Origin: Candidatus Uhrbacteria bacterium
GTDB taxonomy: Bacteria > Patescibacteriota > Patescibacteriia > UBA9934 > GWF2-40-263
NCBI GenBank assembly: GCA_013204385.1
Contig: JABMNY010000031.1
Location: 1,168-65,167 of the forward strand
Length of the DNA stretch: 64,000 bases
Direction: 5' to 3'
Below are positions 9,633 to 63,874 of the stretch, one piece after another. The stretch's first letter is position 1; every line of letters begins with the position of its first letter. The position numbers were made by a program, and so were the translations under genes. The notes under the pieces are model-generated. The model saw only the letters and a program-made list of their open reading frames with translations. It ran no database searches and was not told the origin of the DNA.

Positions 9633-9911
9633 TTACGAACGTCTGAAACGCACTAAGCGTTTGGCTAAAAACCGACGTCCAGCTGTTGATTTAAAATACT
9701 TCTCCCGTGCTCGTGCATCTCCTTCATCAAGACACGCTTCATAATACTCCAGATTAAATAGTCTTCGATATTTTGTAGAGATCACTCGACCATCTTGATG
9801 TTCCTGAAACCTTTTTTTTAAATCCCCAGTAAAACCGACATAGCGTAACCCATCCTTCTGACTTTTTAGGACGTACATATACCAAAAGGTCAAAGTAGTC
9901 TTACCGGGCAT
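9633..9911 (-). CDS. GIY-YIG nuclease-domain protein (YhbQ/UPF0213-like)
   Basis: YMYVLKSQKDGLRYVGFTGDLKKRFQEHQ ... REKYFKSTAGRRF is the GIY-YIG / URI-domain signature; start taken at MPGKTT. Confidence 0.65.
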   Translation of the reverse strand: MPGKTTLTFWYMYVLKSQKDGLRYVGFTGDLKKRFQEHQDGRVISTKYRRLFNLEYYEACLDEGDARAREKYFKSTAGRRFLAKRLVRFRRS

Positions 9912-10044
9912 AGAACAATATGATATCACAGCGAGCAGGATGGACCTGTTGACAAAATCGGGTTTTTTGCATACGATGGCGCGTCCGTCTCACAAACCAA
10001 CGGATTCTGGTCCTCTTGATCAGGAACACCCAAAGGAGTGCCTC

Positions 10045-28311: not shown

Positions 28312-31300
28312 TTATTCGTAAGGACAGTACGTTATATTGAAGTCGCTGAATTCCATTGTTCCAGTTCCATAAAATGCATTTCTGAGTGGAATCACCTGTT
28401 CCGTTGACTGACAGGCAAACGCTGTTGGAAATGGAAGTTCGACATTTGAACCTGATTGAACTTCACTTGTTGTAGTATAGGTTCCATCGTCATCCGTTGT
28501 CGTAAATGTTACCCGTGTCCCAAGAATGGAATCCACAATCGCGGCATACATCTCAGCAATTTCGTCTGAGCTGGATGCTGAAAACGCATAATCTCCCTCA
28601 CAATCTCCAGTGGACGTCACGCTACTCCACGCACATTCATTACTAGACATATGTGCCATATATCCCTTTAGATCACTGTCTGTTGTGACCGCTGCTGAGT
28701 AAATGAGGATGTCACTTCTTGGCACACCTTCCGTAGATCCATCAATAAGTACATCGGAGATCTCAGCTACACACGCAGGAACATCCGCATAATATGATGT
28801 CGATGGATAATTAGACCATGCATATCCAGAACATCCGGTAGACGAACCAACATTGAAAGTGCTATTGAGACCTGGATCTCCATCAGATAAGAGAACTACA
28901 ATTTTTACTTCGGCTGTAGATGCGCTCAGGATAGAAATAGCTTCACTCAATCCGTTATACGTAGGTGTTCCATTTACTACAGAATCGGCATAATCATCAA
29001 GGATACTCATCATGCTTGACTCCGACGAATATAAACTCAATCCAATATCAATTTCCGCTCCATCATCTACAGAACAATCTTCATCTTCACAATCAGCATT
29101 ATACTGACAGACATTGCCATCATCTGACCCCCCACTACAAAGTCCTGTTGATCCAGAGAAGGAGACGAGGGAAATCTGCATGGTCGCATCCAGTGAACCG
29201 TACGCATCAAAAAGATCTGAAACAGCATCTCGCGTTGCTTCAACCACATAGTCAATTCTTCGAATTCCAACAGGAGCTCCAGAAGCTTCACATGTCGACC
29301 CATCACATGATGAAGAACTTGTACACGCATCTCCGTCATTGGTTCCCCCATTACAATACTGATTCGTGTCCACATCCCAATCCATACTTCCTGAAAGATC
29401 CGTGACGAATACAATATCAACATCTGGATGCTCCACATCTTCATCATTAATATCTGCTGTAATCGATGTTGCAACACTGCAGGCTGGAATATAGAGCGCT
29501 GCATTATCAGGAGAATCGCCTTCATCATTCAGATAACTATAAAGCCTAATGGACTCTCCAGGAGTAGCTCCTAACGATTCACTCACAACAAATAATCCTG
29601 TCGTCTCATAAGATGTCGGACATGATGATCCGCAATTATCAGCGCAAATTGGTGCCACACAATCTCCTCCACTACAGGAATTGACGTCATTTCCTGATGT
29701 AAGCTCAGAAACCGTTCCACTACTTGCGTACGTTGTGTAGTTGAGTGTGCAATATTCTCCATTTTCCGTTCCCCCATTACAAACTCCAAGCCATCTACAG
29801 GTATAGCCATCTGAATCTGTTGTGTCATATTCCTCTGAAGCACAGGAGCCCGTTATGCTTCCTGATGTTGAATCATAATTCTTAAACGCGGTTGAATACG
29901 TTCCGTCACACACTTCAGAACCATTCACAACCCCATCTCCACAATAGGCTCCAGAGGTCGTCTTATACTGACAGATTGTGTTGCAATAATTACATGTACT
30001 GCCATAGTCGGCTTCACATAGCACTCCATTTCCTCCATGACTATCAACTTCCCCATCATCACAAGACTCGACGCCAACATAGACATAATCATCTCCACAG
30101 ACGTTTTCTTCACAGGTATTCAAACACGAATCATTGTTTGAGGAGTTTCCATCGTCGCACGCTTCATCTCCTTCCACTGTTCCGTTTCCACAAGTCTGAT
30201 CTCCTCCAACAGGACCCGTCCAAGTTGTTGGCCATTCACAAGATGAAGAGCAGGTTCGATAGCGATAAAGGTCGTATGTATTTGTAGAACATGCTCCACC
30301 ATTATCTTCACAATCTTCATTTGTATCTGTTGAATCACACGTATCTCCCGCATCATCCCCACCAATACAAATCGTTCCTGAACCCGCTGCTTCATATCCT
30401 GTCCCACCACAGGTATCCGTTCCATCACAATCACTGGTGGTCGTACAAGTTGTCACTCCATCAGAACAGAGTTTTCCTTCCCAGGATTCATAATCCCCGT
30501 CACAAGATTCACTTCCATTTACAATTCCATCTCCGCAAGAGAGCCCAGGAAGCGTGCAATTATACGCACAGTTATCTCCACCCGCATCATACTGTCCGTT
30601 TGAAGTTGCGCACCATGGAGAAGCAGTTGTTCCTGTTGCATCTGGACCTATTGTTGCCCAACTACTTGATTCTAAAATCACACTTGCATACGTGCTCGTT
30701 GTTCCACAATCACATTGCTCAGAACCAGCTAAATATCCATCTCCACAGGAGAATGAACCTGTGGCAGTACAAGTGTCTCCACAATGTCCGTAGGTTCCGT
30801 TCAATGAGCCATCATCACAATCCTCACCTGTTTCCACGACACCATTTCCACAATCATAAGGGATGCATTCTGCTCCTGCAAATTCTGCTTCTGTTTGATC
30901 TTGAAAATCTGAACAATCTGATAAACAGGAAACGGCAATCACTCCACCAGAAGCAGTGCAAGCAATGGTCATTGTATCTCCAATCTCACAACCTTCTAAC
31001 GCTCCTTGTGTTCCATCTCCACATAACGCTGAGTCTCCCCAAGTGCTTCCATCACAGAAGACCGGTGTCAATGAAAATCCGCTCATGACAGAACTTGGCG
31101 CGTTTCCTGTTGGATACTCAACTGTAATCGTTCCCTCGTCTGTAGAATCCGCATCTATATCTTCGGTCCATTCATATTCTCCAGAAAGTTCAAGGGTTGC
31201 ATAAAGTTTGTACGCCTCGCCTCCGACACTCTGATAGCCATACACATGTGAATTCTCTGGACACATAAACGTTCCAGATTCTCCGTTCCAACAAGAAGCA

Positions 31301-34300
31301 GAATCGTATCCGTCTTCTGAGCAGTTAAAAAATTCGTTTATTGGATCCGTTGGAAGTGTCGTTCCAAGTTCATTTGCAAGTGAGGCATTCCAAGAGCTCC
31401 AGATAGAGTTTGAGATTGCAGGAATAAACGTCCCAGATTGCACATCAGGAAACCCTACAACACAGACCTCTGTTCCAGGACAATCCTCATCTGCGTCACA
31501 AGATTGACCTTGTGTTACGGCACAATGTCCATTCTCCTCTCCGTAGGAATCGAGTGATGAAGCAAGGGCAGTCACGTCAATAAGTCGTTGCATGTCGCGT
31601 GTCAATTTTGCTTTTTGTCCATCACAGACAATAGTCTCTTCCTCAAACTCTTCATAACAATCCCCATCCCATTCACAGCTCACATACTCCTCATCCTCAT
31701 TCAGCGCATACGTTCCATCAGATTCATCCTGACACAAATTGATATTTGTCACTTCAAGATTATTCGCGTTAAACCGCCAATTCGTAAGCAATTGAGAGAA
31801 GATCTCCTCTGATTCTGCACTCGCATTGTCGTTATAGGAAACAACATACATGTTTGGATAGATATCTCCTGACGATTCAATAAGGTTTGCAGCTGCAGCA
31901 TACAGCGTATTTCCAGACTCAACCGCTGAATAGGAATCAAGTTCCGTCTGTGTAAATGCTCCCGTAAACTGTTGTTCCTCCACCCAATCAGCAGGTGAGA
32001 GATAACTTGCATTTGGAAGGACACGTACTCCAATCGCATCACTTGATCCTTCAACTTTAAAGATAATTTCTTGTCGAATCACCGATGAATCAAATGATGT
32101 GACATCGATTGGATCACCGAGCGCAGGAAGATCATCTTCTGTTCCATCTTCTCCTGCATCGCGACAGTAATAAAATGAGAAATAACTTGGGAGTACATCC
32201 TCCACGTATGGAAAACTTAAGGTTTCTGAAGCAAGGGAAGGCCATGGATTCTCACACAAAAGAGCTCTCACTTCTAGCGTTCCGGAAACAGTTCTTGCAG
32301 GAGATGATTCATCTGCATCCGTAGTTTCATCGTCTTCAATCTCAGCAGTAGATGGGTCAAACAACTCATCATCTGTAATGGTTGCAATCGCAAGCACGAT
32401 TTCACTTCCGTCATTTCCACTTGCGGTAAAACTACGAGTTGTGTCTTCTGGCTCCTCTGTCTCTGGGGTTATAACATTTGTTGAAGCAGAGTCTGTAATC
32501 GAAGATGCCCAAGACCAATCCCAATCATAGAGTCCTTCAATTGGAGAGATTTCTTGATATCCTCCAGCGCGATATGTTTGTGGTGTCGCGACAAACGCAT
32601 GCTCTTCTCCTGTTGTACTGAAATACTGAATACTCAAAGATTCATACTCTTCTGCATCCACATCCCCTGTATCCTCAAGAAGCACGCGATCAAGATCACA
32701 AATCTCTTCACCGATCGCAAATTTTTGACTGAAATATTCATCTTCGCAATCATCATCAATACAGAGAGTTACATCGTTTTGACTCAAGACACCTGTCTTT
32801 TCACTATCTGTTGGAGTCTCGTCGCCCACAACAACCAACTTATAGATTGCATTTTCTTGTAATAATTCACTGAAACGAAGATACACACGGGAGGTTCCAT
32901 CACCATTTTGCACGATCGAATAACTCGTGACCGGCACGTAACAGGAAAAAGTACTTGACGCCTGAACCTCACGACCAAACAACCCAAGAACAACTGATTT
33001 TATAAAATGCCAAATCTTTCCTCCGAAGCTCACAGACTCTGAACCAAGAGAACCAATGTACCCGGACGGACAATCTGCAATGTCGCTCACCGTCTCTTGA
33101 GCTCCGTCTCCATCTGAGTCAACGGAAACAAGATCAATGTAGAGATTTGAATCAAATTCATCCTCTTGAATTGTTCCATCCCCATCTAAATCCTCGGACG
33201 TTCCAAAGGTTGTCTCATCCATCGATTCTGAAAATTCAATCCATACAGCACTATTTCGACAGAACCCCTCATCCGTTCCTGCAAGAAATGCCACAGAGTT
33301 ATCTGCGGGAGAAAGTTCTCCAATTGTTGGACGTTCATAACAACAGTTACTTTCCCCACATCCCAAACCAGCCGCTCCACACGAATTATCTGTGGTACAA
33401 GCACACTGTAATCGAAGCGTTGCCTCTCCTTCCACATCCTCATCCACAACAACAGAAATGGTCGAGATAGCGTATCCTGTGTCTTCGTTTACTTCCGTTG
33501 GAGCACCTGTTGCAACTTGCGCAACACCATAATCTCCTGCTGAGAACGAGGCTGTTGAAAGGGCGTCACAATCCTCTGCGGTTCCAACAATGCCGTCGCC
33601 ACAAAAAGATGGTGTCGCATACTCGTACGACGACCCAAGCCAGAGACAACTGCTTGAACATCCCTCGTCTCCGTCACATGCTTCTCCGGTGTCTACATCT
33701 CCATTTCCACAACAGTTTGCTGAATCACTGGTTGGACACACACTGCTTCCTTCGTACAAACACTCAGAAGAACATCCATCGTCTTCCGCAGAATAATCAC
33801 CTGGGTCACAGTCTTCTCCTTCGTCAATGGTGCCGTCTCCACAAATGGCATAGACATCGTCTTCTGAAGCAGATCCTTCTAAGAGGCAATTCCTTGAACA
33901 ACCATCACCACTTGATGTGTTTCCATCATCGCAATCCTCACCTCCAGTATTTACCACCCAATCCTGTGTTCCATCTCCGCAGACTGAACCGATCGACCGA
34001 GCTCCCTCATTTTTACATGAAGAGGAGCATCCATCACCACTCGTAATGTTTCCATCGTCACAATCTTCTCCTCCCGCAGAGGCTGACCAATCTCGTACTC
34101 CATTTCCACAACAACCTGAACCTGAACGTTCACAGCTATCGCCAGAGTAATAAACACACTCACTACTTGCGCCAGAACAAACACCTCCTGAGAGAGAACA
34201 AGCTCCTACACAAGAACCTGAATCACAGACCCCGTCGTTGGAACACGATGTGTCTGCGTCCTCAAAATCTTCACACAAACCAGCTTCCGAACAGCTTCTG

Positions 34301-37300
34301 CTTTCACATCCTTCGTCTCCTACACAGGCATTACCCACATCTGAAGCAGATGTGCACATAGCGCTTGCACACGTCTCATTACAGGATGCGTCGTTTGTAC
34401 ACTCCGCTCCTGAGGAACTACATGTTGCATCACACTGTACTGATCCTTCATTTAAACACACAGCAGAACATCCATCTCCAGCCTCTGTCCCGCCATCATC
34501 ACATTCTTCGGAATCTTCTACTGATCCATTTCCACAAACTCCGTCAGCGATCGTGACAGGAGCCCCCGCATTCAAGCACGCTGCTGTACAGTAACTTGCA
34601 ATATCAGATGTCAGCTCGATCGCTCCATTTGAAATCATGTAGGAAACGACCTCATCTGAATCCGTGGTACTGGTACTCACTCCATTTTGATTTTGCGCGT
34701 CAGTCGAAACCCATGCATCCCAAAGGTAAGATCCTGACTGAAGCGTTTGACCCTGATCTGAACAATCATCAGGGGCTCCTAATGCAAATGCATCAAACTC
34801 TGCGCGATCTCCCACATAGTAGAGCGTTGCGACAGATGGATCGAGTGTAAGCGAATCAACCGCACAACTCACCGCATCATTTTTTGTTCGAAACACCCAT
34901 GAGAACGCATCTTCAAAATACCGGTTATCATCCGTTCCGTAATTGGAACCTGAGTCAGAAAGAGCAACTCCCGTACAAGAATAAATTTCTGTCGCATCAA
35001 CAACTACGCGATACCAGGTATTGGGCTCTAAGGTCTCTCCATCATTAAAATTAATATAGAACTTCTGGGTTGAATCTTCTTCTGTCTCACAGGTATCGCC
35101 TGAAAAACTCACTGAGGCAACTTCTGCAAACTCCGTCAGTTCTGATGTTTCACACAATGAGTTGTCACATTCATATAATGTGACAGCGCCTGCTCCAATC
35201 GTTCCTCCATCCATCTTTGTATTAAATTCAGCCCAAGGCAACGCGTTCACACACGCGGTTGTACATTGTGGAAAGTAATCTTCAATTTCTGGATCGAGAA
35301 AATTAATCGTCAACTCCCCCTCACCCGATGGATCTCCTTCTGCGTCTGTAACGGTTGCGGTAATAATGGCTGGATCATCTGAAGTCGTTTCAGATTGTGC
35401 ATACACTTCATTCACACACACACCAGACCATTCAGATGTTGGAATTAACACATCGTCTGAAACAGAATCCCAATACAAGGTATATCCAGCACAACTCAAC
35501 GCAACACAACTATCGTTTTGTGCGGTCAGCTGAGCTGTGTAGTCAACGTATGCTTGTTCTGTTTGCGTATATTCCCCTGGACGCACATTCACGTCTCCCA
35601 CCTCACATAATTCCGTAGAGCTACTTGTTGTAAACTCCCAATCAAAATCTTCCGCGAGATATCCTCCATCTGCACTTTGGATTTGATCTCCTCCCTGAAG
35701 AGAGACCTGGTAATGTGTCCCCGCTTCAAACAACCCAGACGTAGGTTGCCAGGAAAATCCTGTTTCGTCTGGAGTAGGCATTGTGCCTTCGACAACCTCC
35801 CAAGTCTTACACTCTCCTTCACTTGCCAAGACACAAGACTCGTCCTCGTCTTCACAATCTCCAACATCGTCACACGCATCTCCTGAAAACGAGCAATAGC
35901 GGTCTTCTGCGGTTTCTTCTTCAAGGGTAAATTCTGAACTACAAGAACGAACAATAACCGTCGATGTCGTAAGTGTATCGCCGTTCATCGCCATATTAAA
36001 CTCAGCTTGCACACTTGCATTCAAACAAATATCGTCTGGGTCGCTCCATCCATCCCACGGAGATGGAGAAGTTCCATCTTCATCACAGGCAAGAATGACA
36101 CGCGGGGTATTTGGTGTAATCCCTGTCGTAATTTTAAATGCATAATGTGCTGACACTTCTTCTGTCTCGTCACAGGTTTCTGAACACGAACCATTAGAGC
36201 AACAACTCTCCCCCTCAGAACACAGGTCTGCATCCTCGCGACAATCTCCTACACTAAATGTCACAGAATTAGATGAATACCCACTTTCAGACTCTTCAAT
36301 ATAAACAGGTCCAGTTGCGGCTTCATCTGGAACGATCACAGATGAAATTTCATCATTTGCCCAAACCCCAAAAGTGGTCTCTTGTGTGGAATAAAAGACA
36401 ACCGTTCCATCATCAGACCCAAGATTCTCTCCGTAGAGCGTAATTTCAGATTCCGCTGGTCCAGCAGAAGGATCGATATTACAGATCGATGGTCCGGGCA
36501 CCTCATCAAGAACAACAAAATCCTCTGCTCCTGATGTATTTCCATCCGCGCGCTCAACAGTCAATGCGTGCGTGATTGCCTCAATCGCATCCTCATCTTC
36601 TGTAAGATACGTCTCAGGGACCTTCATGGTAATAGAGGTGTCATGCCAAAAATCTTCACCACAGACATCAGGAAAATCTGTATCTCCTAATGCAGTATAC
36701 CCAAGCGATTCGTTATCAAAGAAAACAGATCCAGTAGACGTTCCAAATCCCGTTCCATAAATCGTAATGTACTGACCTGCTGGCCCCCAATTGTCGGCAT
36801 CATCACATGTGGCCCCTTCACTACAATCATCATCAGATCCACAATGGGTATTATCATCTGAACATGCCTGCCAACCTGAATCAATAAAAGAAATGATTGG
36901 ACTAGAAGAACTTGAAGAGTCAGCTACGGTAAATGTAACTTTATTTGATCCAACACGGACTGATTCACAAGACCCTCCATCATCTCCACAATCGTCGTCA
37001 TCTCCACAGTACTCAAGTGTTTCAGAGCACCAAGACGCAGCACAACTCTCACCTGCATCTGTGTCACAATCTTCATCGTCTGTACAAGTATCTCCTGTAG
37101 CTACGTTATCTGTATCAACACACAGATAGTCCCCCGTAAACACTTGTCCACTATATCTTCCGGAATTCACATTTGGAACGGAAAGATTCAAGAGTGTGTC
37201 GGACCATGAAACATAGGTACTTGCTTCGTAGTTTGTAAAATAAAACGTAGAAGATCCTTGTGAATCTCCAAAACTGTTTCCGTACACTTCGATGGTAGAT

Positions 37301-38976
37301 CCATAGGTGTCTGAATCTGGATCAAGGAGACAAATTCCAGGTCGCGCAATCGCATTTACATCAAAGTCTGAAATGGATGGACCATAATCATCATCTGTTC
37401 GTTCTGTTTCGTCATCACTTGTCACAACAGAGATCGGTCCATCAATTGCCCCAGAAGGGACTTGGACAATAATCTCAGAATCTGACCATTGAATCTCAGA
37501 ATTACATTCGTAGGCAGATGCAGAGGTCTCGTCACTATTTTCTGTTCCCAAGAAATAGAGAACACCTTCCTCATCTCCAAACCCTTCTCCAGAGATTGTA
37601 ATCAGATTTCCTTCAGCTCCATCTCCTGCAGAAACACTCTCAATTTTTGGAATGGTAACGCATTGTCCGTCGACACATTGTCCGCTTGCACAATCGGAAT
37701 CTTCAGAACATGAATCTCCATCGCAAGACCCACAGTAGTAAGCACTTGAAGAATCTCCTCCGCAATCCACTTCTGTTTCACCCAAATCTTCATCGAGCAC
37801 TTCGTTATTACAATTTGCTGCACGCAACACAATTGAAACACGAGATGCCGTATCAGAATTACCGGCACAATCGTATCCTTTTGCCCAAATGTTATACGTT
37901 TCATTTGTGGTATATCCTTCTGTGTCCCATTCCTCAGCTGTATCACTAAAGAATGCATTTTCAACATTTCCTCCTAGCAGTTCACCTGCATTTGAATAAT
38001 CAACTCCTGAGGAATAGATCGCTTCCTCATCATCAATGACATAAAAATCAACGGTTGAAACACCACTATCATCTGATGTCAGAGCTTGTAAAAGTTCAAT
38101 AGAACCCGCATAAAAACTCTCACCGTTTTCAGGAGCATCGATCTCAACGGTTGGATCTGCGATATCCACCTCTGATCCTGTTGTAAAACTAAAGGAGCAT
38201 GGATACGAACTTGAACAGGTCAGCGATGAACCAGCTGATGAATCGATTACCGTTGAATCGAGATCAATCGTATAACTACTGAGGGGATCAAAACAGGACT
38301 CATCTTCATATGGACTGTCACATGCTTGCGAAGGGGTAAACGTTACTGTACGACTCGAAACAATGAACGTTCCCTCAACAGCATCTCCTCCAGCATCTCG
38401 AATAAGGATACCTTCTTCCACAGTGTCCCCATCAATTTTCTTTGAGAAAACAAACTGGAGCTGAAGATTCTGCAATGCCTCTGCGCACTCTGTGTTCACA
38501 GAACTCAAATAAAATGTGGAGCTTCCACTTCCGTCTGTATAGGAACCTGACGAGGACGAGCTTCCAGAAATATCACCACTCGTCGCCCCCACAAGCGCAT
38601 TTAAAATAAACTGTGCGATCGCAAAACTTGAAAATACCAGTATGAGTCCGATCACCGAATTAATGATGATCTTCTTAGCCTTTGCAATCCTCTCAGGACT
38701 TCCTCCTGCCGTCATGTACACAAACCCTCCGTAGAGTATGAACACGACCGTCACAACTCCCACGAGCGTAATTGCCGTTCGAATGAGACGTGCAATGATC
38801 ACAGTGATGCTTGCTGTGGTGGAGAACCCAGCAGTCTCTGCGAATGACTCAAGATTCACATCTTGAGCAAATACTGGCGCGGCAACGAAAATCCCAACAC
38901 ATAATATTAGTGCAAGGAAAACGCCTAAGTAAGTTGCCCGAGTGAATCTACGCATGTCGTTAAAGTTCAGTTTCAC
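28312..38976 (-). CDS. giant (3554 aa) cysteine-rich secreted surface protein: signal peptide, VirB2/TrbC-like two-helix membrane module, Ig-like domains, four IPT/TIG domains, two clusters of Myxococcus-type Cys-rich repeats and a C-terminal vWA domain; putative adhesin
   Basis: One uninterrupted 10.6-kb ORF. N-terminus: signal peptide ending FAQ, then IIARLIRTAITLVGVVTVVFILYGGFVYM...AKAKKIIINSVIGLILVFSSFAIAQFIL. IPT/TIG-like blocks (e.g. PKIESVSAGDGAEGNLITISGEGFG...). Many CGDG/CGNG-x5-8-E-x-CDDGN units. MIDAS motif DIVFVTDLSGSM. Plus-strand His-rich ORFs across this span are antisense artefacts. Confidence 0.85.
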   Translation of the reverse strand: MKLNFNDMRRFTRATYLGVFLALILCVGIFVAAPVFAQDVNLESFAETAGFSTTASITVIIARLIRTAITLVGVVTVVFILYGGFVYMTAGGSPERIAKAKKIIINSVIGLILVFSSFAIAQFILNALVGATSGDISGSSSSSGSYTDGSGSSTFYLSSVNTECAEALQNLQLQFVFSKKIDGDTVEEGILIRDAGGDAVEGTFIVSSRTVTFTPSQACDSPYEDESCFDPLSSYTIDLDSTVIDSSAGSSLTCSSSYPCSFSFTTGSEVDIADPTVEIDAPENGESFYAGSIELLQALTSDDSGVSTVDFYVIDDEEAIYSSGVDYSNAGELLGGNVENAFFSDTAEEWDTEGYTTNETYNIWAKGYDCAGNSDTASRVSIVLRAANCNNEVLDEDLGETEVDCGGDSSSAYYCGSCDGDSCSEDSDCASGQCVDGQCVTIPKIESVSAGDGAEGNLITISGEGFGDEEGVLYFLGTENSDETSASAYECNSEIQWSDSEIIVQVPSGAIDGPISVVTSDDETERTDDDYGPSISDFDVNAIARPGICLLDPDSDTYGSTIEVYGNSFGDSQGSSTFYFTNYEASTYVSWSDTLLNLSVPNVNSGRYSGQVFTGDYLCVDTDNVATGDTCTDDEDCDTDAGESCAASWCSETLEYCGDDDDCGDDGGSCESVRVGSNKVTFTVADSSSSSSPIISFIDSGWQACSDDNTHCGSDDDCSEGATCDDADNWGPAGQYITIYGTGFGTSTGSVFFDNESLGYTALGDTDFPDVCGEDFWHDTSITMKVPETYLTEDEDAIEAITHALTVERADGNTSGAEDFVVLDEVPGPSICNIDPSAGPAESEITLYGENLGSDDGTVVFYSTQETTFGVWANDEISSVIVPDEAATGPVYIEESESGYSSNSVTFSVGDCREDADLCSEGESCCSNGSCSETCDETEEVSAHYAFKITTGITPNTPRVILACDEDGTSPSPWDGWSDPDDICLNASVQAEFNMAMNGDTLTTSTVIVRSCSSEFTLEEETAEDRYCSFSGDACDDVGDCEDEDESCVLASEGECKTWEVVEGTMPTPDETGFSWQPTSGLFEAGTHYQVSLQGGDQIQSADGGYLAEDFDWEFTTSSSTELCEVGDVNVRPGEYTQTEQAYVDYTAQLTAQNDSCVALSCAGYTLYWDSVSDDVLIPTSEWSGVCVNEVYAQSETTSDDPAIITATVTDAEGDPSGEGELTINFLDPEIEDYFPQCTTACVNALPWAEFNTKMDGGTIGAGAVTLYECDNSLCETSELTEFAEVASVSFSGDTCETEEDSTQKFYINFNDGETLEPNTWYRVVVDATEIYSCTGVALSDSGSNYGTDDNRYFEDAFSWVFRTKNDAVSCAVDSLTLDPSVATLYYVGDRAEFDAFALGAPDDCSDQGQTLQSGSYLWDAWVSTDAQNQNGVSTSTTDSDEVVSYMISNGAIELTSDIASYCTAACLNAGAPVTIADGVCGNGSVEDSEECDDGGTEAGDGCSAVCLNEGSVQCDATCSSSGAECTNDASCNETCASAMCTSASDVGNACVGDEGCESRSCSEAGLCEDFEDADTSCSNDGVCDSGSCVGACSLSGGVCSGASSECVYYSGDSCERSGSGCCGNGVRDWSASAGGEDCDDGNITSGDGCSSSCKNEGARSIGSVCGDGTQDWVVNTGGEDCDDGNTSSGDGCSRNCLLEGSASEDDVYAICGDGTIDEGEDCDPGDYSAEDDGCSSECLYEGSSVCPTSDSANCCGNGDVDTGEACDGDEGCSSSCLWLGSSYEYATPSFCGDGIVGTAEDCDALSTASFSAGDYGVAQVATGAPTEVNEDTGYAISTISVVVDEDVEGEATLRLQCACTTDNSCGAAGLGCGESNCCYERPTIGELSPADNSVAFLAGTDEGFCRNSAVWIEFSESMDETTFGTSEDLDGDGTIQEDEFDSNLYIDLVSVDSDGDGAQETVSDIADCPSGYIGSLGSESVSFGGKIWHFIKSVVLGLFGREVQASSTFSCYVPVTSYSIVQNGDGTSRVYLRFSELLQENAIYKLVVVGDETPTDSEKTGVLSQNDVTLCIDDDCEDEYFSQKFAIGEEICDLDRVLLEDTGDVDAEEYESLSIQYFSTTGEEHAFVATPQTYRAGGYQEISPIEGLYDWDWSWASSITDSASTNVITPETEEPEDTTRSFTASGNDGSEIVLAIATITDDELFDPSTAEIEDDETTDADESSPARTVSGTLEVRALLCENPWPSLASETLSFPYVEDVLPSYFSFYYCRDAGEDGTEDDLPALGDPIDVTSFDSSVIRQEIIFKVEGSSDAIGVRVLPNASYLSPADWVEEQQFTGAFTQTELDSYSAVESGNTLYAAAANLIESSGDIYPNMYVVSYNDNASAESEEIFSQLLTNWRFNANNLEVTNINLCQDESDGTYALNEDEEYVSCEWDGDCYEEFEEETIVCDGQKAKLTRDMQRLIDVTALASSLDSYGEENGHCAVTQGQSCDADEDCPGTEVCVVGFPDVQSGTFIPAISNSIWSSWNASLANELGTTLPTDPINEFFNCSEDGYDSASCWNGESGTFMCPENSHVYGYQSVGGEAYKLYATLELSGEYEWTEDIDADSTDEGTITVEYPTGNAPSSVMSGFSLTPVFCDGSTWGDSALCGDGTQGALEGCEIGDTMTIACTASGGVIAVSCLSDCSDFQDQTEAEFAGAECIPYDCGNGVVETGEDCDDGSLNGTYGHCGDTCTATGSFSCGDGYLAGSEQCDCGTTSTYASVILESSSWATIGPDATGTTASPWCATSNGQYDAGGDNCAYNCTLPGLSCGDGIVNGSESCDGDYESWEGKLCSDGVTTCTTTSDCDGTDTCGGTGYEAAGSGTICIGGDDAGDTCDSTDTNEDCEDNGGACSTNTYDLYRYRTCSSSCEWPTTWTGPVGGDQTCGNGTVEGDEACDDGNSSNNDSCLNTCEENVCGDDYVYVGVESCDDGEVDSHGGNGVLCEADYGSTCNYCNTICQYKTTSGAYCGDGVVNGSEVCDGTYSTAFKNYDSTSGSITGSCASEEYDTTDSDGYTCRWLGVCNGGTENGEYCTLNYTTYASSGTVSELTSGNDVNSCSGGDCVAPICADNCGSSCPTSYETTGLFVVSESLGATPGESIRLYSYLNDEGDSPDNAALYIPACSVATSITADINDEDVEHPDVDIVFVTDLSGSMDWDVDTNQYCNGGTNDGDACTSSSSCDGSTCEASGAPVGIRRIDYVVEATRDAVSDLFDAYGSLDATMQISLVSFSGSTGLCSGGSDDGNVCQYNADCEDEDCSVDDGAEIDIGLSLYSSESSMMSILDDYADSVVNGTPTYNGLSEAISILSASTAEVKIVVLLSDGDPGLNSTFNVGSSTGCSGYAWSNYPSTSYYADVPACVAEISDVLIDGSTEGVPRSDILIYSAAVTTDSDLKGYMAHMSSNECAWSSVTSTGDCEGDYAFSASSSDEIAEMYAAIVDSILGTRVTFTTTDDDGTYTTTSEVQSGSNVELPFPTAFACQSTEQVIPLRNAFYGTGTMEFSDFNITYCPYE
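28777..29439 (-). other. von Willebrand factor type A domain of the giant protein (about aa 3180-3400)
   Basis: DIVFVTDLSGSM MIDAS motif (DxSxS) followed by the alternating beta/alpha pattern (...IVVLLSDGDPG...). Confidence 0.6.
29887..31029 (-). other. Cys-rich repeat cluster 2 of the giant protein (about aa 2650-3030)
   Basis: CGNGVVETGEDCDDGSLNG; CGDGIVNGSESCDGD; CGNGTVEGDEACDDGNSSNNDSCLNTCEEN; CGDGVVNGSEVCDG. Confidence 0.5.
33577..34545 (-). other. Cys-rich repeat cluster 1 of the giant protein (about aa 1478-1800)
   Basis: Units such as CGNGSVEDSEECDDGGTEAGDGCSAVCLNEG and CGNGVRDWSASAGGEDCDDGNITSGDGCSSSCKNEG resemble the Myxococcus cysteine-rich repeat (established family, recalled from memory). 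Confidence 0.5.
36247..37650 (-). other. region encoding four IPT/TIG-like domains of the giant protein (about aa 443-910)
   Basis: Positions derived by counting residues; motif pattern P.I.S..P..G..GT.ITI.G.GFG......V.F...... repeated four times. Confidence 0.5.
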
Positions 38977-40840
38977 TATTATTTGGAAGAACGTAATCGC
39001 TAGGAGCTGGACTCACGCTTTGTTCTGCTTCAACCGTTTCCTGCCACCCTGTCTGACATGCAGATCGAGATGCAATCCCGTTACAACAATAAGGTTTTTC
39101 TTCATCTCTTCCCTCCGTACACGTTGATCCAGGTCCTATGGCTGGATACATACAGATCTGGTAGGCACTCTTAATGTCATTTGTAAGAACAGGCCAGTAG
39201 TCCCATCCTCCCTCATCTGTACTTACAAAGCTTGGATGTTCAATAAGCACGGTCGTTCGTTCGGTTTCATCATTATTTTCCTTCCGAACAGCAAACCACG
39301 ATTCATAATACGGATCGGGCCACAATGACACACTATGCGTTTTGACTGTTGAAGACTTGAGGTACGTATTAAACGTGATTTCCACATCGTTTGTCTGACT
39401 AATCTCATCTTCTTCAACTCCAGGATCTAATCCTTCTTCTATAATCTGTGGAACTGTGTCTTCAATTTCATCGGTTGTTGTAAAATTCCATTCCTTATTA
39501 TCCGTCTCATCCCCGTCAGAGCACTCAATCGTATCAGAGGCGGAACCACAGGCTTCTCCATCATGATCCCCATCTAATGAGTTTGCAGCGGCGTCAACCA
39601 GACCATCAAACGTAAACCCGGTGGACTCTGCTTGAGGCGCTTCATCTTCATTGATGGTAGCAGCCTTAGCAACCACATCAACAAGTTGATTTGAAGGAAG
39701 ACAGTAAATTGTGTCTCCACAAGGATCTTCTCCACACGCATCCGTTGTCGTGAAACTGAGTGTGCGATAAGCATTACTAATCTCGAAGGTTCCCTCTACC
39801 ACCTCACCAGCCTCGTTATAGACTAAAATATTTGTAAACAAATCCTCATCCCCAATATACGATCCTGTACTTGCCACAGGATCCATCGCCTCAGAGAAGT
39901 TAATTTCAATGGTGATATTTCGAGGTTCTTGTGCATCTTGCTGAGGAACAACAGATGTCACATATGGAGGGGTCAAATCAATTTCTGTTGAAACTTCAAA
40001 TGTCCAACTATATCCACTCGCATATGCTCCAGAAAATGCAGATGAGCCTGATTCTTTTTCAATATTCGTCGTCAGCGTAACCGTATAATTCGTATCCTCT
40101 TCTGCTGAACCAAGATACTCAACAGGATCAAAGACGAACACTTCAAGATCTTCATCATACGTCACGACCACAGCCTCTGACTCCAATGCTTCACCTGCTC
40201 CCTGTTCTGTTGGATAGATGATAATACTATCCGCATTCAAATAATCATCTGTTGAATCGTCCCCATCATAATTACTCACAATTGATTCTGGATTGATTGC
40301 TTCTTTGAAACTGACAAAAATCCGTGTATTTCGAGCAATGTCCCGCGCATCACGCTCAGGATAATGGTCATCTAAGACACCTCCTCCTAAGGAACCAGAC
40401 AAAGGTTCAGAATACGCGTCAGCGACCGCTGAGGCTGTCCCTGTGAATGCCGCCTCAAGCAAACGACTTAAAATGAATGAAGCGATGCTATAGGCAGAAA
40501 AAATAATGAAGAGCCCAATGATAGACTGCTGAAGAACCTTCTTAGCTTTTTTAATTGGTTCTACTTCCCCACGAGCAAGGAGATAGAGAAATCCAGCATA
40601 AATAACCAGGCAAACAAAGATGATTCCAACAACCGTCAACGCGACACGAATGACGCGCGCAATAATAATCGCAATGTTGTCTGTCGGAAGCGTTGAAGCT
40701 GTTCCGAATTGTTCAAATGCCGTTTGCTGAGCAAACGTCGGATGAACATTCACAAGAAAAAATAAAACAGAAAACGCTACGACTCCAAGAAGGAGCGCGC
40801 GCAATGTGGGTGCTTCAAATTTCATAAAGGGACGGTCCAT
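38960..40840 (-). CDS. 626-aa secreted protein with the same VirB2/TrbC-like two-helix N-terminal module followed by Ig-like (Big_5/SbsA-type) domains; partner of the giant protein
   Basis: Signal peptide ending FAQ; IIIARVIRVALTVVGIIFVCLVIYAGFLYLL...KKAKKVLQQSIIGLFIIFSAYSIASFIL aligns with the giant's N-terminus; TPPYVTSVVPQQ...INFSEAMD Ig-like block; 17-nt overlap with the giant gene. Confidence 0.7.
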   Translation of the reverse strand: MDRPFMKFEAPTLRALLLGVVAFSVLFFLVNVHPTFAQQTAFEQFGTASTLPTDNIAIIIARVIRVALTVVGIIFVCLVIYAGFLYLLARGEVEPIKKAKKVLQQSIIGLFIIFSAYSIASFILSRLLEAAFTGTASAVADAYSEPLSGSLGGGVLDDHYPERDARDIARNTRIFVSFKEAINPESIVSNYDGDDSTDDYLNADSIIIYPTEQGAGEALESEAVVVTYDEDLEVFVFDPVEYLGSAEEDTNYTVTLTTNIEKESGSSAFSGAYASGYSWTFEVSTEIDLTPPYVTSVVPQQDAQEPRNITIEINFSEAMDPVASTGSYIGDEDLFTNILVYNEAGEVVEGTFEISNAYRTLSFTTTDACGEDPCGDTIYCLPSNQLVDVVAKAATINEDEAPQAESTGFTFDGLVDAAANSLDGDHDGEACGSASDTIECSDGDETDNKEWNFTTTDEIEDTVPQIIEEGLDPGVEEDEISQTNDVEITFNTYLKSSTVKTHSVSLWPDPYYESWFAVRKENNDETERTTVLIEHPSFVSTDEGGWDYWPVLTNDIKSAYQICMYPAIGPGSTCTEGRDEEKPYCCNGIASRSACQTGWQETVEAEQSVSPAPSDYVLPNNSETEL

Positions 40841-55041: not shown

Positions 55042-55647
55042 TTAAACGAAGCGGTCAGTGGGGGGGTTGGTGGGTAGAGTGGTCGAAGATACATCGTCGA
55101 TGGTCTGTGGTGTTTCCTTTTTGAAGGTCTTTGAGGCACTTAAGACCTCGAGGACCACATGGACACCAGTCACTCCGGGGAGGCCCTTCTTGGCCAGCGA
55201 AGCTCCGAGAGCCTCAAGGTAGCGCTGGTAGGCGTAGACCTGCTGACGTCGAAGATTGCGCGTCCCGGGGTAGATCGAGAACCAATAGCGTGGTGCGCTG
55301 TTGGGCATCCCGTTCTGTGGGATCGGATCGCCGTGGATGTAGAAGATGCTGTCCGCGTTGGCATCCGGGTGCAGGTGGTCATCGACCCAGGGTTGCTGTG
55401 CATCGACCTCGAGGATTGCTACCCGAAGGAAGTCGATGTCCTCGATGCCGTATGCGTGGAAGACGACTTGACCACGAATGGTGTAGGGACGATCCTTCGA
55501 CCATTGAAGCATCGACAGGAGCGCCTCGCCCCATCTTTCTATGAGGGTACTCATCGAGATACCTCTTTCTTTGAAGCTTCGCCAACGGGGCGATGACCGG
55601 TCACATACCTTTGCAGTAACGGGAAAGAGTACCTTTTTTTCAATCAT
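55042..55647 (-). CDS. hypothetical soluble protein (high-GC cassette, gene 1)
   Basis: 201 aa with no recognised motif; strong SD (ggaggagg) before the ATG at 55647; an alternative start is the ATG at 55554. Confidence 0.5.
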   Translation of the reverse strand: MIEKKVLFPVTAKVCDRSSPRWRSFKERGISMSTLIERWGEALLSMLQWSKDRPYTIRGQVVFHAYGIEDIDFLRVAILEVDAQQPWVDDHLHPDANADSIFYIHGDPIPQNGMPNSAPRYWFSIYPGTRNLRRQQVYAYQRYLEALGASLAKKGLPGVTGVHVVLEVLSASKTFKKETPQTIDDVSSTTLPTNPPTDRFV

Positions 55648-58415: not shown

Positions 58416-58492
58416 AAAAAAGAATTATCTATATTATCAATCTAGTATGATTTAAGCATGCTCATGTTGTCTATACGAGACGTGGATAACAC

Positions 58493-58545
58493 ACAAAAAA
58501 ACACCCAAGCTTTGCTTGGGTGTTTTTGGTGCCGCGGGCGGGAAT
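58493..58545. repeat. 52-nt direct repeat copy A: a duplicate of the tRNA-Leu 3' end (18 nt) plus its downstream terminator hairpin; copy B is at 58681-58732
   Basis: aaaaaacacccaagctttgcttgggtgtttttggtgccgcgggcgggaat occurs twice (one A-run differs by 1 nt); the copies are about 135 bp apart. Confidence 0.8.
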
Positions 58546-58714
58546 ATGGGATTTTAACAAATCCCATATTGCACTCGTTCGTTCGGTACAAAAAATAAGG
58601 TTATAAATATTACTTATTTTTTGCACACTCACTCTCTCCTGCATCGAACCCGGGTGCGGATTCTCATCCTGCACCGCGGAACAAAAAACACCCAAGCTTT
58701 GCTTGGGTGTTTTT

Positions 58715-58800
58715 GGTGCCGCGGGCGGGAATCGAACCCGCACATGGTTACCCATACAGGATTTTGAGTCCTGCGCGTCTACCGGTTCCGCCACCGCGGC
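58715..58800 (-). tRNA. tRNA-Leu (anticodon CAA), class II with a long variable arm, CCA encoded
   Basis: Manually folded: acceptor GCCGCGG/CCGCGGC, anticodon stem CAGGA/TCCTG with loop CTCAAAA, T-arm GCGGG-TTCGATT-CCCGC, discriminator A. Confidence 0.8.
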
Positions 58801-58811
58801 ATTGTTCGCAC

Positions 58812-58937
58812 AAGCTGTCTTTAAAAAAGATGAGATACGCCGTGCTGGAAGGCGGAAAGCTCGTGAAATGTAGGTAATCCTACATTGAGCGAGTTTCCAA
58901 CTGAAGCACAAATAGATCGCTTTTTTAAAGACAGCTT
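58812..58937 (-). repeat. 125-nt inter-tRNA element bounded by a perfect 18-bp inverted repeat (aagctgtctttaaaaaag / cttttttaaagacagctt)
   Basis: Arms at 58812-58829 and 58920-58937, read directly; the second arm abuts the tRNA-Met 3' end. Confidence 0.6.
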
Positions 58938-59013
58938 GGTAGCTGGAGGGGGATTCGAACCCCCGACCTCGGGCTTATGAGTCCCACGCTCTAACCAACT
59001 GAGCTATCCAGCT
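58937..59013 (-). tRNA. tRNA with anticodon CAT (Met; initiator or elongator, or a tRNA-Ile2 lysidine precursor), CCA encoded
   Basis: Acceptor AGCTGGA/TCCAGCT, D-arm TAGCTCAGTTGGTTAGAGC, anticodon loop CTCATAA, T-arm GGGGG-TTCGAAT-CCCCC. One A-G mismatch closes the anticodon stem. Confidence 0.8.
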
Positions 59014-59074: not shown

Positions 59075-62000
59075 TCACAAAAGAACAAGATCTAAACGCC
59101 TTTTTAAGATAGTTTTATCAACCTGATCTGAAGGTAAGAAGGTTTCTCCGCTACTAAATCTACCCATCAATGTTGGAGGAAGATCTATCACATACTCAGC
59201 CCAACTCCCCCCATAAAGAGTTTGAGCCATATCTTCAGATGAAATCCATCTCAATAATTGTCGATTTTCATCCTCCTCATCAGCCTCCACTGCGTATACA
59301 CGTGGATCGCTTTGAATCTTTACAAGCACAACTCCTGGTTTTGGAAGCATGGGTGCTCCTAACGTAAGTGCACTCAAAGTTGCATCCGACACCGTCCTTA
59401 CAGCTGAAAAATCATCTTGCCATGTAAAGAAAATTGTATGATTTTGAAATGGACGACGGGTTCCTGTGGAGGAGATTTGATAGACCACAGGATATGAAAC
59501 ACCTCGAATGTAATCTCCGACAAAAACAGCATCGATAGGTTCGATTTCACCATTGAACGGAGAACGTCCTGATTGTGTTCCATCTAATACAACAGATGAT
59601 GATTCTTCTGTGAGATCTGCGTCCTGCACACCTTCCGTTTCTGTTGTGGTATTCTCTTCAGTTGAGACTGAAGATGTTTTTATTGTGAAAACTTTGTTCG
59701 ATGTGTCTGAAACAGTATACGTGCTCTCTGAACGAGTAATCTTCACAAGACCGTTTGTTGTTTCGACTGCAGGAACCGTCCAACTATATTCTGACGTTCC
59801 TCCATTATAGTAGTCCTTTATCAAGGTATAAGAAGTTCCTCCATCGAAGGAATAGTAGATCTGTGTACGAGCTCCATTAGTTCCACTTGTCCATGTCCAG
59901 TCAATAACAATAGTAGCACCTATCGTTAGCATCTCTCCCCCATTTGGAGAAAGTACTTGAACAGTTCCTAAGACCTCACCAGAATACCCGCCTCCAAATC
60001 CCCAGTTAAGATTATTACCAAGATCTTCAGATCGAGATGAAGAAACATCATGTGTAACGGCACTTCCACTACTAGCATCTGAATCTTGGACAGATACGTA
60101 ATCCACAGAGATTGTTCCAGATAATTGGAGATTCCAAGCCGTGTCCGCGCTTGTGCTTGTAAGACTTATAAGCTGACCTGAAGCACCTGTCATCGTAAAA
60201 ATATTCGTGACGGTTTGCGTCGTCCCAGCGGTAAACTGAATTGCTTTTGACGCTGTTGTAGAAGAAAGATTATAGAACGTTGTGGAACCGGAAACAGTAG
60301 AGGTTGTTCCAGAGGTATCAAATGTCACGGTTCCAGATCGAGGAGTAAATGTCCCCCCCCCTTCCCCAGTCTCCACCAACCGTTATGGCATAATTTGATG
60401 CGCTTACATCTAACGTTCCGCTTGAAATTGTAACATCATCATCTACTTCTAGATTTGCCCCAAGCGTGACTACCCCTGCAGAATTGACGATAAAATCATT
60501 AAACGCTTCGTTCGCATTCACGGTTCCTGTTCCATCGAAGGTGACAGTTCCTGCTTGCTCAGCGAAGATTCCTGCCCCGGTGTCGGTCCAAGATCCGGCA
60601 ACAGTCATACCAAAGTTAGAGCCAGAAACATCGAGTGTTCCAGCAGTGAGGATGATGTTTCCGTTTATATCGAGTGCTCCATCCAACACATAGGTACTTC
60701 CAGATGAATTCACTGTGAGATTGTTGTATGGAGAGAGTGCTGAAAGAACCTCTTGTGAAATTGTCGTAGCTGCTTTGTAGATAATCGTTCCCCCAGAATT
60801 CGTCCATGTTCCGGCATTTTTGATGATGTCAACGGTTGGATCGTCCGATTCAATTTCTAAACTTCCATTTGAAATAGTCACTGTATCCGGAGCTCCATCC
60901 CCAAATGTATTTGTATTCGTCCCCGTTTTCATGATTCCTCCATTAATGGAAGAATTTCCAGCAATCGTCATGGTCTGATCATTCACATCAAACACTCCTG
61001 TTGTAAGCGTAAGATTCCCCACAATACTTTCAGCGACTCCCAAATTGAATGTGCCACCAGGACCATTAAACGTTAGGTGATGGTAGGAATAATCTTTCAC
61101 TGTATAGGGCCCCGATGTTCCATCATAGGTCACAGTTGAACCTGAGTTGAGTGTCGGTGTCGTAATAGTTTCTCCTCCCTGTAATCGAAAGGTTCCTCCG
61201 TCCTCAACCACAAATACTGAACCCGACCCATTCACCGTAAGCGCATAGCTACTTACGTCAAAACTTCCTTCTGTGATTGTGAGATCCTGATTTGTCGCGT
61301 TTAACGTCAACGCAGAACCTAATTCCACAGATCCTGAACTTTTATTAATCACAATATCTCCATCACAAGATGCCTCAACTCCAGTCAAGGTAAACGTCTG
61401 TGTTCCCGTTCCATTAAATGTTATTGGAACTGAACCACAACTCGTTGCGACTGTCATGTTTCCTCCAACCTGTACCACCGCTCCTCCTCCAGCTGTATTA
61501 AAATTACTACCCGACCCCGGGGAAAAATTCAGATCACTTTCAATAATAATGACATCACCTGACGATACTGAGAGTGCCCAGCCACCTGTTTTTGCAAAAG
61601 AAAAATTATAAAAAGTCTCTGACGTATTTACATCAAGAGTCCCCGCGAAACTACTTCCAAATTCAACCAATCCATTATTATGCACGAATGTACCACCTGC
61701 GGTATGGGTCCAATTTTTTGCAATTGCCATTGTTTCAGAAGTTGCATTGAATGTCCCCCCACTTTGAACAAAATAATATAAATTCACTGAACCAGAACCA
61801 CCAATAAAGGTTCCACCAGACTGAGTAAACAGCGCCGTTCCATTATTATTGATAGTCAATCCAAAACCATTCAAGTCAACCGTTCCGTTCGTAAGTGTAA
61901 AATCTTGATTTGAAACGTTCATTATTATTGAAGAAAGAAACTGGAGTGTTCCAGAAGATTTATTAACCGTGAGATCACCATCAAATTCACCTTCAATACC

Positions 62001-62798
62001 TGTTAAATCCCAGGTTTGAGTCCCAGTCCCATTGATCCTCATTGGGACGTTTGAAAAAGCCGTTGTTGCACTGATATTTCCTCCAACTATTATGAGTGCA
62101 GAAATTCCATTTAATACACTTCCTGCTCCAGATGTAGAGATAAGATCGTTGAGAACAACCATTGTGTCTCCGGACGTAATTGTAAGATCCCATCCACCTG
62201 TCTTTGAAAAGAGGACATTATAAAATGTCTCTGTGACATTAATATTCATCACTGCCCCCGCATTCGCATCAAAATTCACTGTGCCGTTATTATGTGCGAA
62301 TGTCCCACCGGAATTCGTAAAGTTTGTAGAAATAGTCATGGTTCCTGACGTGGCTGTAAATGTTCCACCTACAAGAGTCATTGATCCGTTCAAATCTATC
62401 GTCGAACTTCCTCCATTAAAAGAACCAACGTCTTGAACGAAATTTCCATTTCCAATTGTCAGTGTTGATCGAGTAACACTTATCGCTGAGGTATACCCAA
62501 TGTTAATATCAATCCCAGAAACAGCTCCTCCAAAACTTCCACCTGCATCAATATTTGATGCAGTATCCGATGTTCCATCGAATGTCGCCACATCCCCAGA
62601 ACCAGGACAGACGTCTCCACTCCAGTTTGTGCAAGTACTCCATAACCCGTCCCCTCCTTCACCATCCCATGTGCGAACAGCTGCATGAACCTGGTCTACA
62701 GACAAAAAAAGACTGATGCAGACAAAACCAAAGACACACCCGAATGTTACGGCTTTTCTAAACACGTACTCCATCATAAAATCGATCAATAAAAACAC
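59075..62798 (-). CDS. large repetitive beta-helix-like secreted surface protein (about 1255 aa if contiguous), split into 826-aa and 434-aa ORFs by a frameshift at a G9 homopolymer
   Basis: Signal peptide, then tandem repeat units of about 170 aa (SGGTFxHNNGxVxF...ETFYNxxFxKTGGW...NGTGTQTxxLTG...NKSSGxL...). The repeat pattern continues unbroken across the junction, and deleting one G fuses the frames. Confidence 0.7.
60353..60361 (-). repeat. homopolymeric tract (C9 on plus, G9 on the coding strand) at the frameshift point
   Basis: Read directly (gt ccccccccc tt cccc). Confidence 0.9.
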
Positions 62799-63004
62799 AT
62801 CAATTATAGCACATTTTCAATTCTGCGAACGAACAAAAACACTCCGTCTGAAGACGAAGTGTTTTTGGTTGCCCAAGCAGAACGGTTTTGGAACGGTTCT
62901 GGGAAATTGATTGGCAGGAACTGTTTCCTGAACCATCTATCACCTTAGCCAAATTTGGCTTTCTAACAATCTAAATTTCTACTTACTGCAAAAATAGAGC
63001 AGAA

Positions 63005-63476: not shown

Positions 63477-63743
63477 TCAAGTGTTTAATTGTTTTTGTAA
63501 ATAATGCCTCACCTGTTTTTTTAAGTATCTCCAACCTGATCCACTTTTTAAAAACTTCTCGCGACCAAGAGCGTCTTTTTGATTAAGGTACGCTTCATAA
63601 TAGATTACTTTCCAAGGTCCTCGTTTTGATGTTGAAGTGTTTCCATCTCGATTATGTTTAGCAACACGTTCTTTAAGATCAGCAGAATATCCAATATACC
63701 ATTTTCCACTCGACATACTTTCAATGACATATACATAGTACAT
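63477..63743 (-). CDS. GIY-YIG nuclease-domain protein (YhbQ/UPF0213-like), second intact copy
   Basis: MYYVYVIESMSSGKWYIGYSADLKERVAKHN...REKFLKSGSGWRY; start taken at the ATG at 63743. Confidence 0.65.
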   Translation of the reverse strand: MYYVYVIESMSSGKWYIGYSADLKERVAKHNRDGNTSTSKRGPWKVIYYEAYLNQKDALGREKFLKSGSGWRYLKKQVRHYLQKQLNT

Positions 63744-63766
63744 ATATTTTACATAGTAACGAATTT

Positions 63767-63874
63767 GGCTTGCCACGTGAATAGATAGTATCTACGGGGC
63801 TTGCCACGTGAACACCTACGTTGAATATGATACAGCCACGTAAAATCGACATACAAACGTTGTCGATCACGTGG
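63767..63874. repeat. 15-nt direct repeat ggcttgccacgtgaa (63767-63781 and 63798-63812) and four CACGTG palindromic hexamers upstream of the GIY-YIG gene
   Basis: Read directly. Confidence 0.6.

Follow-up and report, generated by a model that had tools for sequence, protein, structure and literature searches.

A nine-guanine tract interrupts the gene of a predicted beta-helix surface protein in Candidatus Uhrbacteria

Introduction

When two overlapping open reading frames (ORFs) meet at a run of guanines, the question arises whether they are two genes or one and, if one, whether the interruption is a sequencing error, a mutation or a switch. This question is raised by a locus of Candidatus Uhrbacteria bacterium, a member of the Patescibacteria, located on contig JABMNY010000031.1 (assembly GCA_013204385.1) within a stretch of 64,000 nucleotides (nt) that constitutes the window analysed here and whose positions are used throughout. 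On its minus strand, an upstream frame of 826 amino acids (aa), ORF1, overlaps a downstream frame of 434 aa, ORF2, at a site formed by exactly nine G on the coding strand (G9; C9 on the plus strand). The original prediction, made from the letters of the window, took both frames for parts of one repetitive surface protein and proposed either a phase-variable contingency locus or a sequencing frameshift. As developed below, ORF1 and ORF2 are a single gene split at the homopolymer, and the break is read, with a probability of roughly 0.5, as a genuine and recent slippage lesion in a tract that would be incidental but hypermutable. The elements on which the argument depends are the following.

59075..62798, minus strand: whole interrupted gene, which in the G8 state would encode 1240 aa (1233 aa when started at the ATG, 62777)
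60353..60361, minus strand: G9 homopolymer, site of the +1 frame break
60318..62798, minus strand: upstream ORF (ORF1), GTG start, with a truncated product of 826 aa under G9 (819 aa from the ATG)
59075..60379, minus strand: downstream ORF (ORF2), TTG start, 434 aa, fully open
60299..60452, minus strand: repeat unit of about 74 aa holding the tract, paralogous to the preceding unit at 60516-60674
62803..62811, minus strand: putative extended -10-like promoter element TGCTATAAT, proposed from its letters

One gene split at a homopolymer

Both frames and the count of nine G were re-found at the positions given by the original prediction. Removal of one G fuses them, as had been anticipated, although the resulting ORF comprises 1240 aa from the GTG and not the approximately 1255 aa first estimated. 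When the tract length was varied in silico, the full-length frame was obtained with G8 (1240 aa) and G11 (1241 aa), and products of 823-827 aa were obtained with G6, G7, G9, G10 and G12, so that changes of a single unit exchange the full-length and the truncated frame. In the G8 state the tract is read as the codons AGG GGG GGG, which place R-G-G in the motif GGDW-GRG-GTFT; in the G9 state, 65% of the way along the gene, the ORF1 product acquires an out-of-frame tail of 11 residues, DIYSSIWNRDI, and ends. With regard to the beginning of the protein, a mere 5 nt separate the element TGCTATAAT from the GTG at 62798, which makes the ATG at 62777 the more plausible start; this element is proposed from its letters, and a consensus scan that also demanded a -35 element did not report it.

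Evidence for a single gene comes from its relatives. A search of the fused sequence against 5.8 billion protein clusters produced 315 matches, mostly from Patescibacteria, 120 of which were listed. In 63 of these 120 listed relatives, some of them 50-60% identical, the junction together with 40 residues on either side is spanned by one BLASTP high-scoring segment pair, and the G8 version aligns across it without gaps with 21 relatives. The junction itself, ITVGGDW-GRG-GTFTPRSGTVTFD, can be superimposed on the family consensus ITVGGNW-SNS-GTFTxRSGTVTFD. The internal architecture points in the same direction. The chain of motifs GGTF...GTVTFD...TFYN passes through the tract, and the junction falls within a repeat of about 74 aa (residues 783-833 versus 709-761, 43% identity, E 3e-13). 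The strongest internal repeat measures about 203 aa (residues 144-331 versus 347-537, 47% identity, E 5e-61). These repeats were detected by self-BLAST without composition correction, the default correction showing none. The proposed continuity of the repeat from the first frame into the second was borne out in this way, and the period of about 170 aa assigned to it has to be replaced by about 203 aa for the strong repeat and about 74 aa at the junction.

The possibility that ORF2 is an independent gene was rejected. Neither of its possible starts, GTG or TTG, is preceded by a Shine-Dalgarno-like sequence, and its product lacks a signal peptide of its own, which makes it implausible as a gene in its own right; its start, in addition, falls in the middle of a beta-helix coil. 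ORF2 is merely the out-of-frame remainder of the interrupted gene, and the central claim of the original prediction, one gene broken at a homopolymer, is upheld by the relatives that span the junction and by the gap-free alignment of the G8 form. In GenBank the halves are recorded, on a contig of 65,170 bp, as two hypothetical proteins of Candidatus Uhrbacteria bacterium, HQ487_03950 (NQV90529.1) and HQ487_03945 (NQV90528.1), and neither public entry carries a frameshift or pseudogene flag.

It is important to establish how old the interruption may be. ORF2 remains open for 434 codons, with no decay seen, and its first 120 aa show a mean identity of 0.49 to 30 relatives, compared with 0.41 for the 120 aa before the tract; in the seven closest relatives the corresponding values are about 0.58 and about 0.61. 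A downstream part that stays open and matches the upstream part in conservation is not what an old pseudogene would leave; the frameshift is therefore recent, transient or artefactual.

Architecture and family of the encoded protein

The uninterrupted protein can be divided into the following regions.

62682..62777, minus strand: predicted Sec signal peptide MMEYVFRKAVTFGCVFGFVCISLFLSVDQVHA, proposed from the sequence and from the conserved N-terminus of relatives
60008..62678, minus strand: predicted right-handed parallel beta-helix region of about 890 residues
59678..59965, minus strand: stretch of about 95 aa, related to parts of proteins with PF10342 (Kre9_KNH), predicted local distance difference test (pLDDT) below 50
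59531..59677, minus strand: Ser/Thr/Glu-rich linker, recognised by its composition, pLDDT below 50
59078..59530, minus strand: C-terminal alpha/beta module of about 150 aa, candidate cell-wall anchor

The N-terminus, MMEYVFRKAVTFGCVFGFVCISLFLSVDQVHA followed by AV, resembles a Sec signal peptide with cleavage after VHA, and the relatives share a conserved N-terminus of the form A-x-A followed by AV-x-TWDGGG, which lends weight to the signal peptide that had been proposed for the fused protein. The guess of a parallel beta-helix was likewise supported by structure prediction, in which the repeats of the fused protein are modelled as an uninterrupted right-handed parallel beta-helix that runs through the tract with pLDDT values of 89-91 across the junction. 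The function is another matter, and a role as an adhesin is at most a candidate, as the modelled fold is also found in polysaccharide lyases and hydrolases. The segment of about 95 aa that follows is probably a small beta-sandwich, according to a low-confidence model, and it gave no direct Pfam match. The C-terminal module also ends subtilisin-family proteases and FN3 proteins of Patescibacteria, and its probable role is to keep the protein attached to the cell envelope.

Comparison of the fused protein with Pfam and NCBIfam gave nothing at E < 0.1, no Pfam model matches either it or its closest full-length relative (P0002), and no match to the ORF2 product was obtained among PDB sequences. 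The family is nevertheless large, since a profile of the junction region retrieved 8,414 cluster representatives (50%-identity clusters) at E <= 1e-3. Its members carry the repeat motif ...GG[ND]WxNxGTFTxxxGTVTFDGxG...TFYN...; many are giant proteins, with lengths of up to about 7,700 aa and as many as 37 stretches matched.

Reality of the nine-G tract

The G9 state was found in three assemblies. Besides the window, it is present in the Logan assembly of SRR28106091 (L001), identical to the window over 4814 of 4814 bases, and in a metagenome contig of the JGI, Ga0335110_1669974, of 32,954 bp; all three observations are assembly consensus sequences, and their read sets or samples may overlap. 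The JGI contig contains an additional copy of a 31-nt tandem repeat, its one difference from the window apart from the contig ends, which shows that it does not duplicate the assembly of the window. This repeat, TTCACGTGGCAAGCCCCGTAGATACTATCTA, is located at 63767-63812 on the minus strand, just upstream of a GIY-YIG gene, and represents a copy-number polymorphism: the window holds 1.5 copies and the JGI contig 2.5 (L003:694-770); the Logan contig stops within it.

The rest of the window was also inspected for broken genes. A 10.6-kb ORF is unbroken, three T8 tracts, at 9812, 26582 and 44344, all sit in intact ORFs, and no second split gene was found in the 64 kb. A generally error-prone assembly was considered and rejected, given that the remaining overlapping ORF pairs on the same strand are complete and distinct genes (pyruvate kinase, an HtrA-like protease and an AI-2E transporter). 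An artefact is made less likely by the recurrence of G9 in three assemblies together with the lack of any other split gene in the window. These observations favour a genuine majority of G9 in the sampled population, and the sequencing-frameshift branch of the original prediction loses ground accordingly, its contingency branch having gained no positive support.

Origin of the tract

The tract is the only G/C run of at least 8 in the 64-kb window; a G7 is located at 55060. Its existence is not unusual and is expected by chance in a Gly-rich gene: 20 of 100 dinucleotide-preserving shuffles yield at least two C8 matches, Gly accounts for 13% of the residues of the gene, and 3 of its 29 Gly-Gly dipeptides are coded by GGG-GGG. 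What is not due to chance is that the frame breaks exactly at the tract and that removal of one G restores a gap-free alignment.

The DNA of relatives was compared at 53 loci from species-representative genomes, a set that does not contain the genome of the window itself, the closest about 60% identical, and at a further 12 loci from metagenomes, with a best identity of 49% and no sister strain among them. In none of these relatives does a G tract occupy the orthologous codons, which in the closest relatives read TGG GCG AAG ACG GGA ACG and TGG TCG AAC TCA GGA ACG. A search of metagenome contigs with the variable-tract pattern N{6,12} at the locus gave 0 matches, and an in-frame G8 allele was absent from the protein clusters and metagenome collections searched.

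G tracts do arise elsewhere in the family. In-frame tracts on the coding strand, at Gly-Gly(-Gly), occur as G9 in L054 (1109-1117) and as G8 in L047 (6913-6920), L041 (633-640) and L062 (2785-2792). The genes that contain them are intact, encode 1837-2777 aa and come from Planctomycetota, Cloacimonadaceae, Syntrophaceae and, for L062, an unassigned metagenome contig; the positions of the tracts are non-homologous. Since such in-frame tracts are sporadic and appear at non-homologous sites in intact genes, the beta-helix family seems to yield G tracts as a by-product of its Gly-rich motifs. A different arrangement is observed in Candidatus Yanofskybacteria (L010; MGJU01000008.1), in which a G10 at 2815-2824 lies in the 5' untranslated region, around the ribosome-binding site, and ends 12 nt before the ATG at 2837 of a gene for a 1145-aa member of the family with a signal peptide. 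Changes in the length of this G10 could modulate expression.

Weighing the explanations

According to the preferred reading, to which a probability of about 0.5 is given, the locus would encode a secreted cell-surface protein of about 1233 aa in which a Sec signal peptide is followed by about 890 aa of beta-helix, a small beta domain, a linker and a C-terminal anchor-like module. The population would carry a genuine one-base insertion, from G8 to G9, that arose through slipped-strand mispairing in a poly-G tract specific to the lineage and coding for the R-G-G of GGDW-xxx-GTFT. Translation of the G9 form would stop 11 codons past the tract and would leave a product devoid of the last approximately 115 residues of the helix, with their conserved C-terminal motif, as well as of the beta domain, the linker and the putative anchor; such a product is probably non-functional. 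G8 would consequently represent the ON state, and, because the lesion sits in a G9 tract, reversion at high frequency is likely to be possible. The tract would be an incidental by-product of GGG-GGG codons, not selected as a switch. Several points weigh against this interpretation. The collections searched contain no G8 allele that would document the presumed ON state; the three tract codons, which give G-R-G where the family consensus has S/A-N-S/T, differ from it by several G-ward substitutions that could reflect selection for the tract; the product is a surface protein, and evolved phase variation is typical of that class; and the G9 count comes from the consensus of three assemblies that possibly share reads or samples.

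Some of these points are the strength of a second explanation, an evolved contingency locus in which selection would keep the tract and slippage would toggle between G8 (ON, anchored) and G9 or G10 (OFF, truncated). This is rather unlikely, as is the corollary that switching would diversify the surface, for example against phage or in host-cell attachment. In its favour, a G/C tract longer than the approximate minimum of 7 lies within the reading frame of a surface-protein gene whose ON and OFF frames are one slip apart, three successive codons off the family consensus make up the tract, the downstream part is intact as expected of a transient OFF state, and one member of the family carries the G10 described above 12 nt before its start codon. 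Moreover, phase-variable tracts in Campylobacter jejuni most often have the length G9, and both G8 and G9 switch fast there (PMC3401435). Against it, the tract of such a locus would be expected to exceed chance, to be conserved among relatives or to be one of several in the genome. Here the tract is expected by chance from composition, occurs in no relative at the orthologous codons and has no second long G/C tract beside it in the 64 kb, with none in the neighbouring pilin-like surface-protein genes of 3554 and 626 aa. All three assemblies agree on G9 at the consensus level, with no variation in length seen, and other family members display G and R/K at the tract positions without forming a tract, as in DWGKASG of L013. 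The position at 65% of the gene also argues against an evolved switch, as tracts with a suggested inactivating role favour the 5' end according to Orsi et al. (PMC2831843), whose analysis concerns poly(A) and poly(T).

That the true tract is G8, the gene intact and the additional G an error of sequencing or assembly is quite unlikely. This explanation would account for a break located exactly at the longest G/C homopolymer of the window and for a downstream part without decay; there is no G8 allele to compare with, and overlapping reads of one study site may underlie all three assemblies. It is confronted, on the other hand, with the same G9 from three different pipelines, one of whose assemblies differs at the 31-nt tandem repeat and the contig ends, and with a window in which no other gene is broken, including the 10.6-kb ORF and the three that contain T8. 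Short-read consensus errors are, besides, uncommon at homopolymers of 9 nt. Recoding, in which G9 would be functional thanks to +1 ribosomal frameshifting on GGG GGG G or to transcriptional slippage that yields G8 or G11 mRNA, appears highly improbable. The P-site tRNA-Gly could, judging by the codons, re-pair perfectly after a +1 slip, and slippage of polymerases on long homopolymers is known, but the documented cases of transcriptional slippage lie mostly on A/T runs. No relative needs a frameshift, all of them being in frame, and in the 0 frame the tract is followed by GAC, an ordinary codon that is neither a stop nor rare. The region downstream of the tract showed no stimulatory RNA structure (z = +0.89; its folding is equalled or surpassed by 166 of 200 shuffles), and the conserved site with stimulatory signals that characterises programmed frameshifting or slippage was not found.

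Other features of the window

Directly downstream of the split gene lie tRNA-Leu(CAA) at 58714-58800 and tRNA-Met(CAT) at 58937-59013, both on the minus strand, preceded by a promoter-like TTGTCA-17-TATATT at 59055-59027. A mechanically called ORF at 58471..58911 overlaps tRNA-Leu and was discarded as spurious. Two small stand-alone GIY-YIG ORFs (PF01541) are present on the minus strand, at 63477-63776 and 9633-9929, the latter with an in-frame A8 tract (T8 at 9812-9819 on the plus strand). The two surface-protein genes mentioned above are adjacent, at 28312-38976 and at 38960-40840 (minus strand), and encode products of 3554 and 626 aa. In both products a T4SS_pilin domain (PF18895) at the N-terminus leads into Ig-like domains (Big_5, TIG), and neither gene is interrupted.

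Significance

Independently of which explanation applies, two hypothetical proteins of GenBank are really one interrupted gene, and the C-terminal module emerges as a candidate for a new domain that anchors proteins to the cell envelope of Patescibacteria. The finding is otherwise an ordinary one if the break turns out to be incidental or artefactual. Should phase variation be true, homopolymer switching would be extended from host-associated pathogens to uncultured environmental Patescibacteria, whose surface proteins are thought to mediate attachment to host cells. A wall-anchored beta-helix protein would then be toggled on and off by G8/G9 slippage, possibly as a response to phage or for host-cell attachment, the G10 of Candidatus Yanofskybacteria would provide a second example within the family, and tract length, countable in metagenomes already sequenced, would become a cheap and testable marker. 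To judge from the literature that could be searched, this would be the first contingency locus described in the ultra-small, episymbiotic Patescibacteria, a claim that has to be regarded as doubtful.

Comparison with known systems

None of the literature searched linked Patescibacteria or the Candidate Phyla Radiation to phase variation by simple sequence repeats. At the level of the fold, the protein was compared with pertactin, autotransporter passengers (Pet, UpaB, TibA, Hap and Ag43) and tapirins, and no significant sequence or Foldseek match to any of these beta-helix proteins was obtained. Like the autotransporters, it is modelled with a right-handed parallel beta-helix in the position of the passenger; unlike them, it has no C-terminal beta-barrel translocator, its last 150 aa being alpha/beta and giving no autotransporter Pfam match. 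As polysaccharide lyases and phage tailspikes also adopt the beta-helix fold, function is not readable from it. A closer likeness is offered by members of its own family anchored through S-layer-homology domains (for example P0003-P0006 and P0009; PF00395), which share the beta-helix repeat region and are 50-60% identical around the junction. These proteins end in S-layer-homology domains, whereas the protein described here ends in another module and gives no PF00395 match.

With respect to the tract, the obvious counterparts are the poly-G/C genes of Campylobacter jejuni, Neisseria and Haemophilus (cj1139 with G8 and cj0031 with G9, for example), in which a G8 or G9 likewise lies in a surface-related gene whose frames are switched by single-base slippage. 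In C. jejuni, G8 and G9 tracts switch at high rates, and G8 mutates mainly by insertion (PMC3401435), which makes reversion of the present tract physically likely irrespective of how it arose. The locus of Candidatus Uhrbacteria departs from these systems in that no length heterogeneity is seen, tracts are not enriched in the 64 kb, the tract is unconserved and placed two-thirds into the gene, and the organism is an uncultured environmental member of the Patescibacteria. A further parallel is provided by inlA of Listeria monocytogenes, studied by Orsi et al. (PMC2831843), who found homopolymeric poly(A) and poly(T) tracts preferentially near the 5' ends of genes and read this as a means of efficient gene inactivation. 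The tract of inlA is a poly(A) at the extreme 5' end that leaves a product of 8 aa, in contrast to a poly(G) at 65% of the gene that leaves one of 826 aa. The situation in inlA is nonetheless comparable, a surface-protein gene of natural strains inactivated by a homopolymer frameshift that reverts at high frequency.

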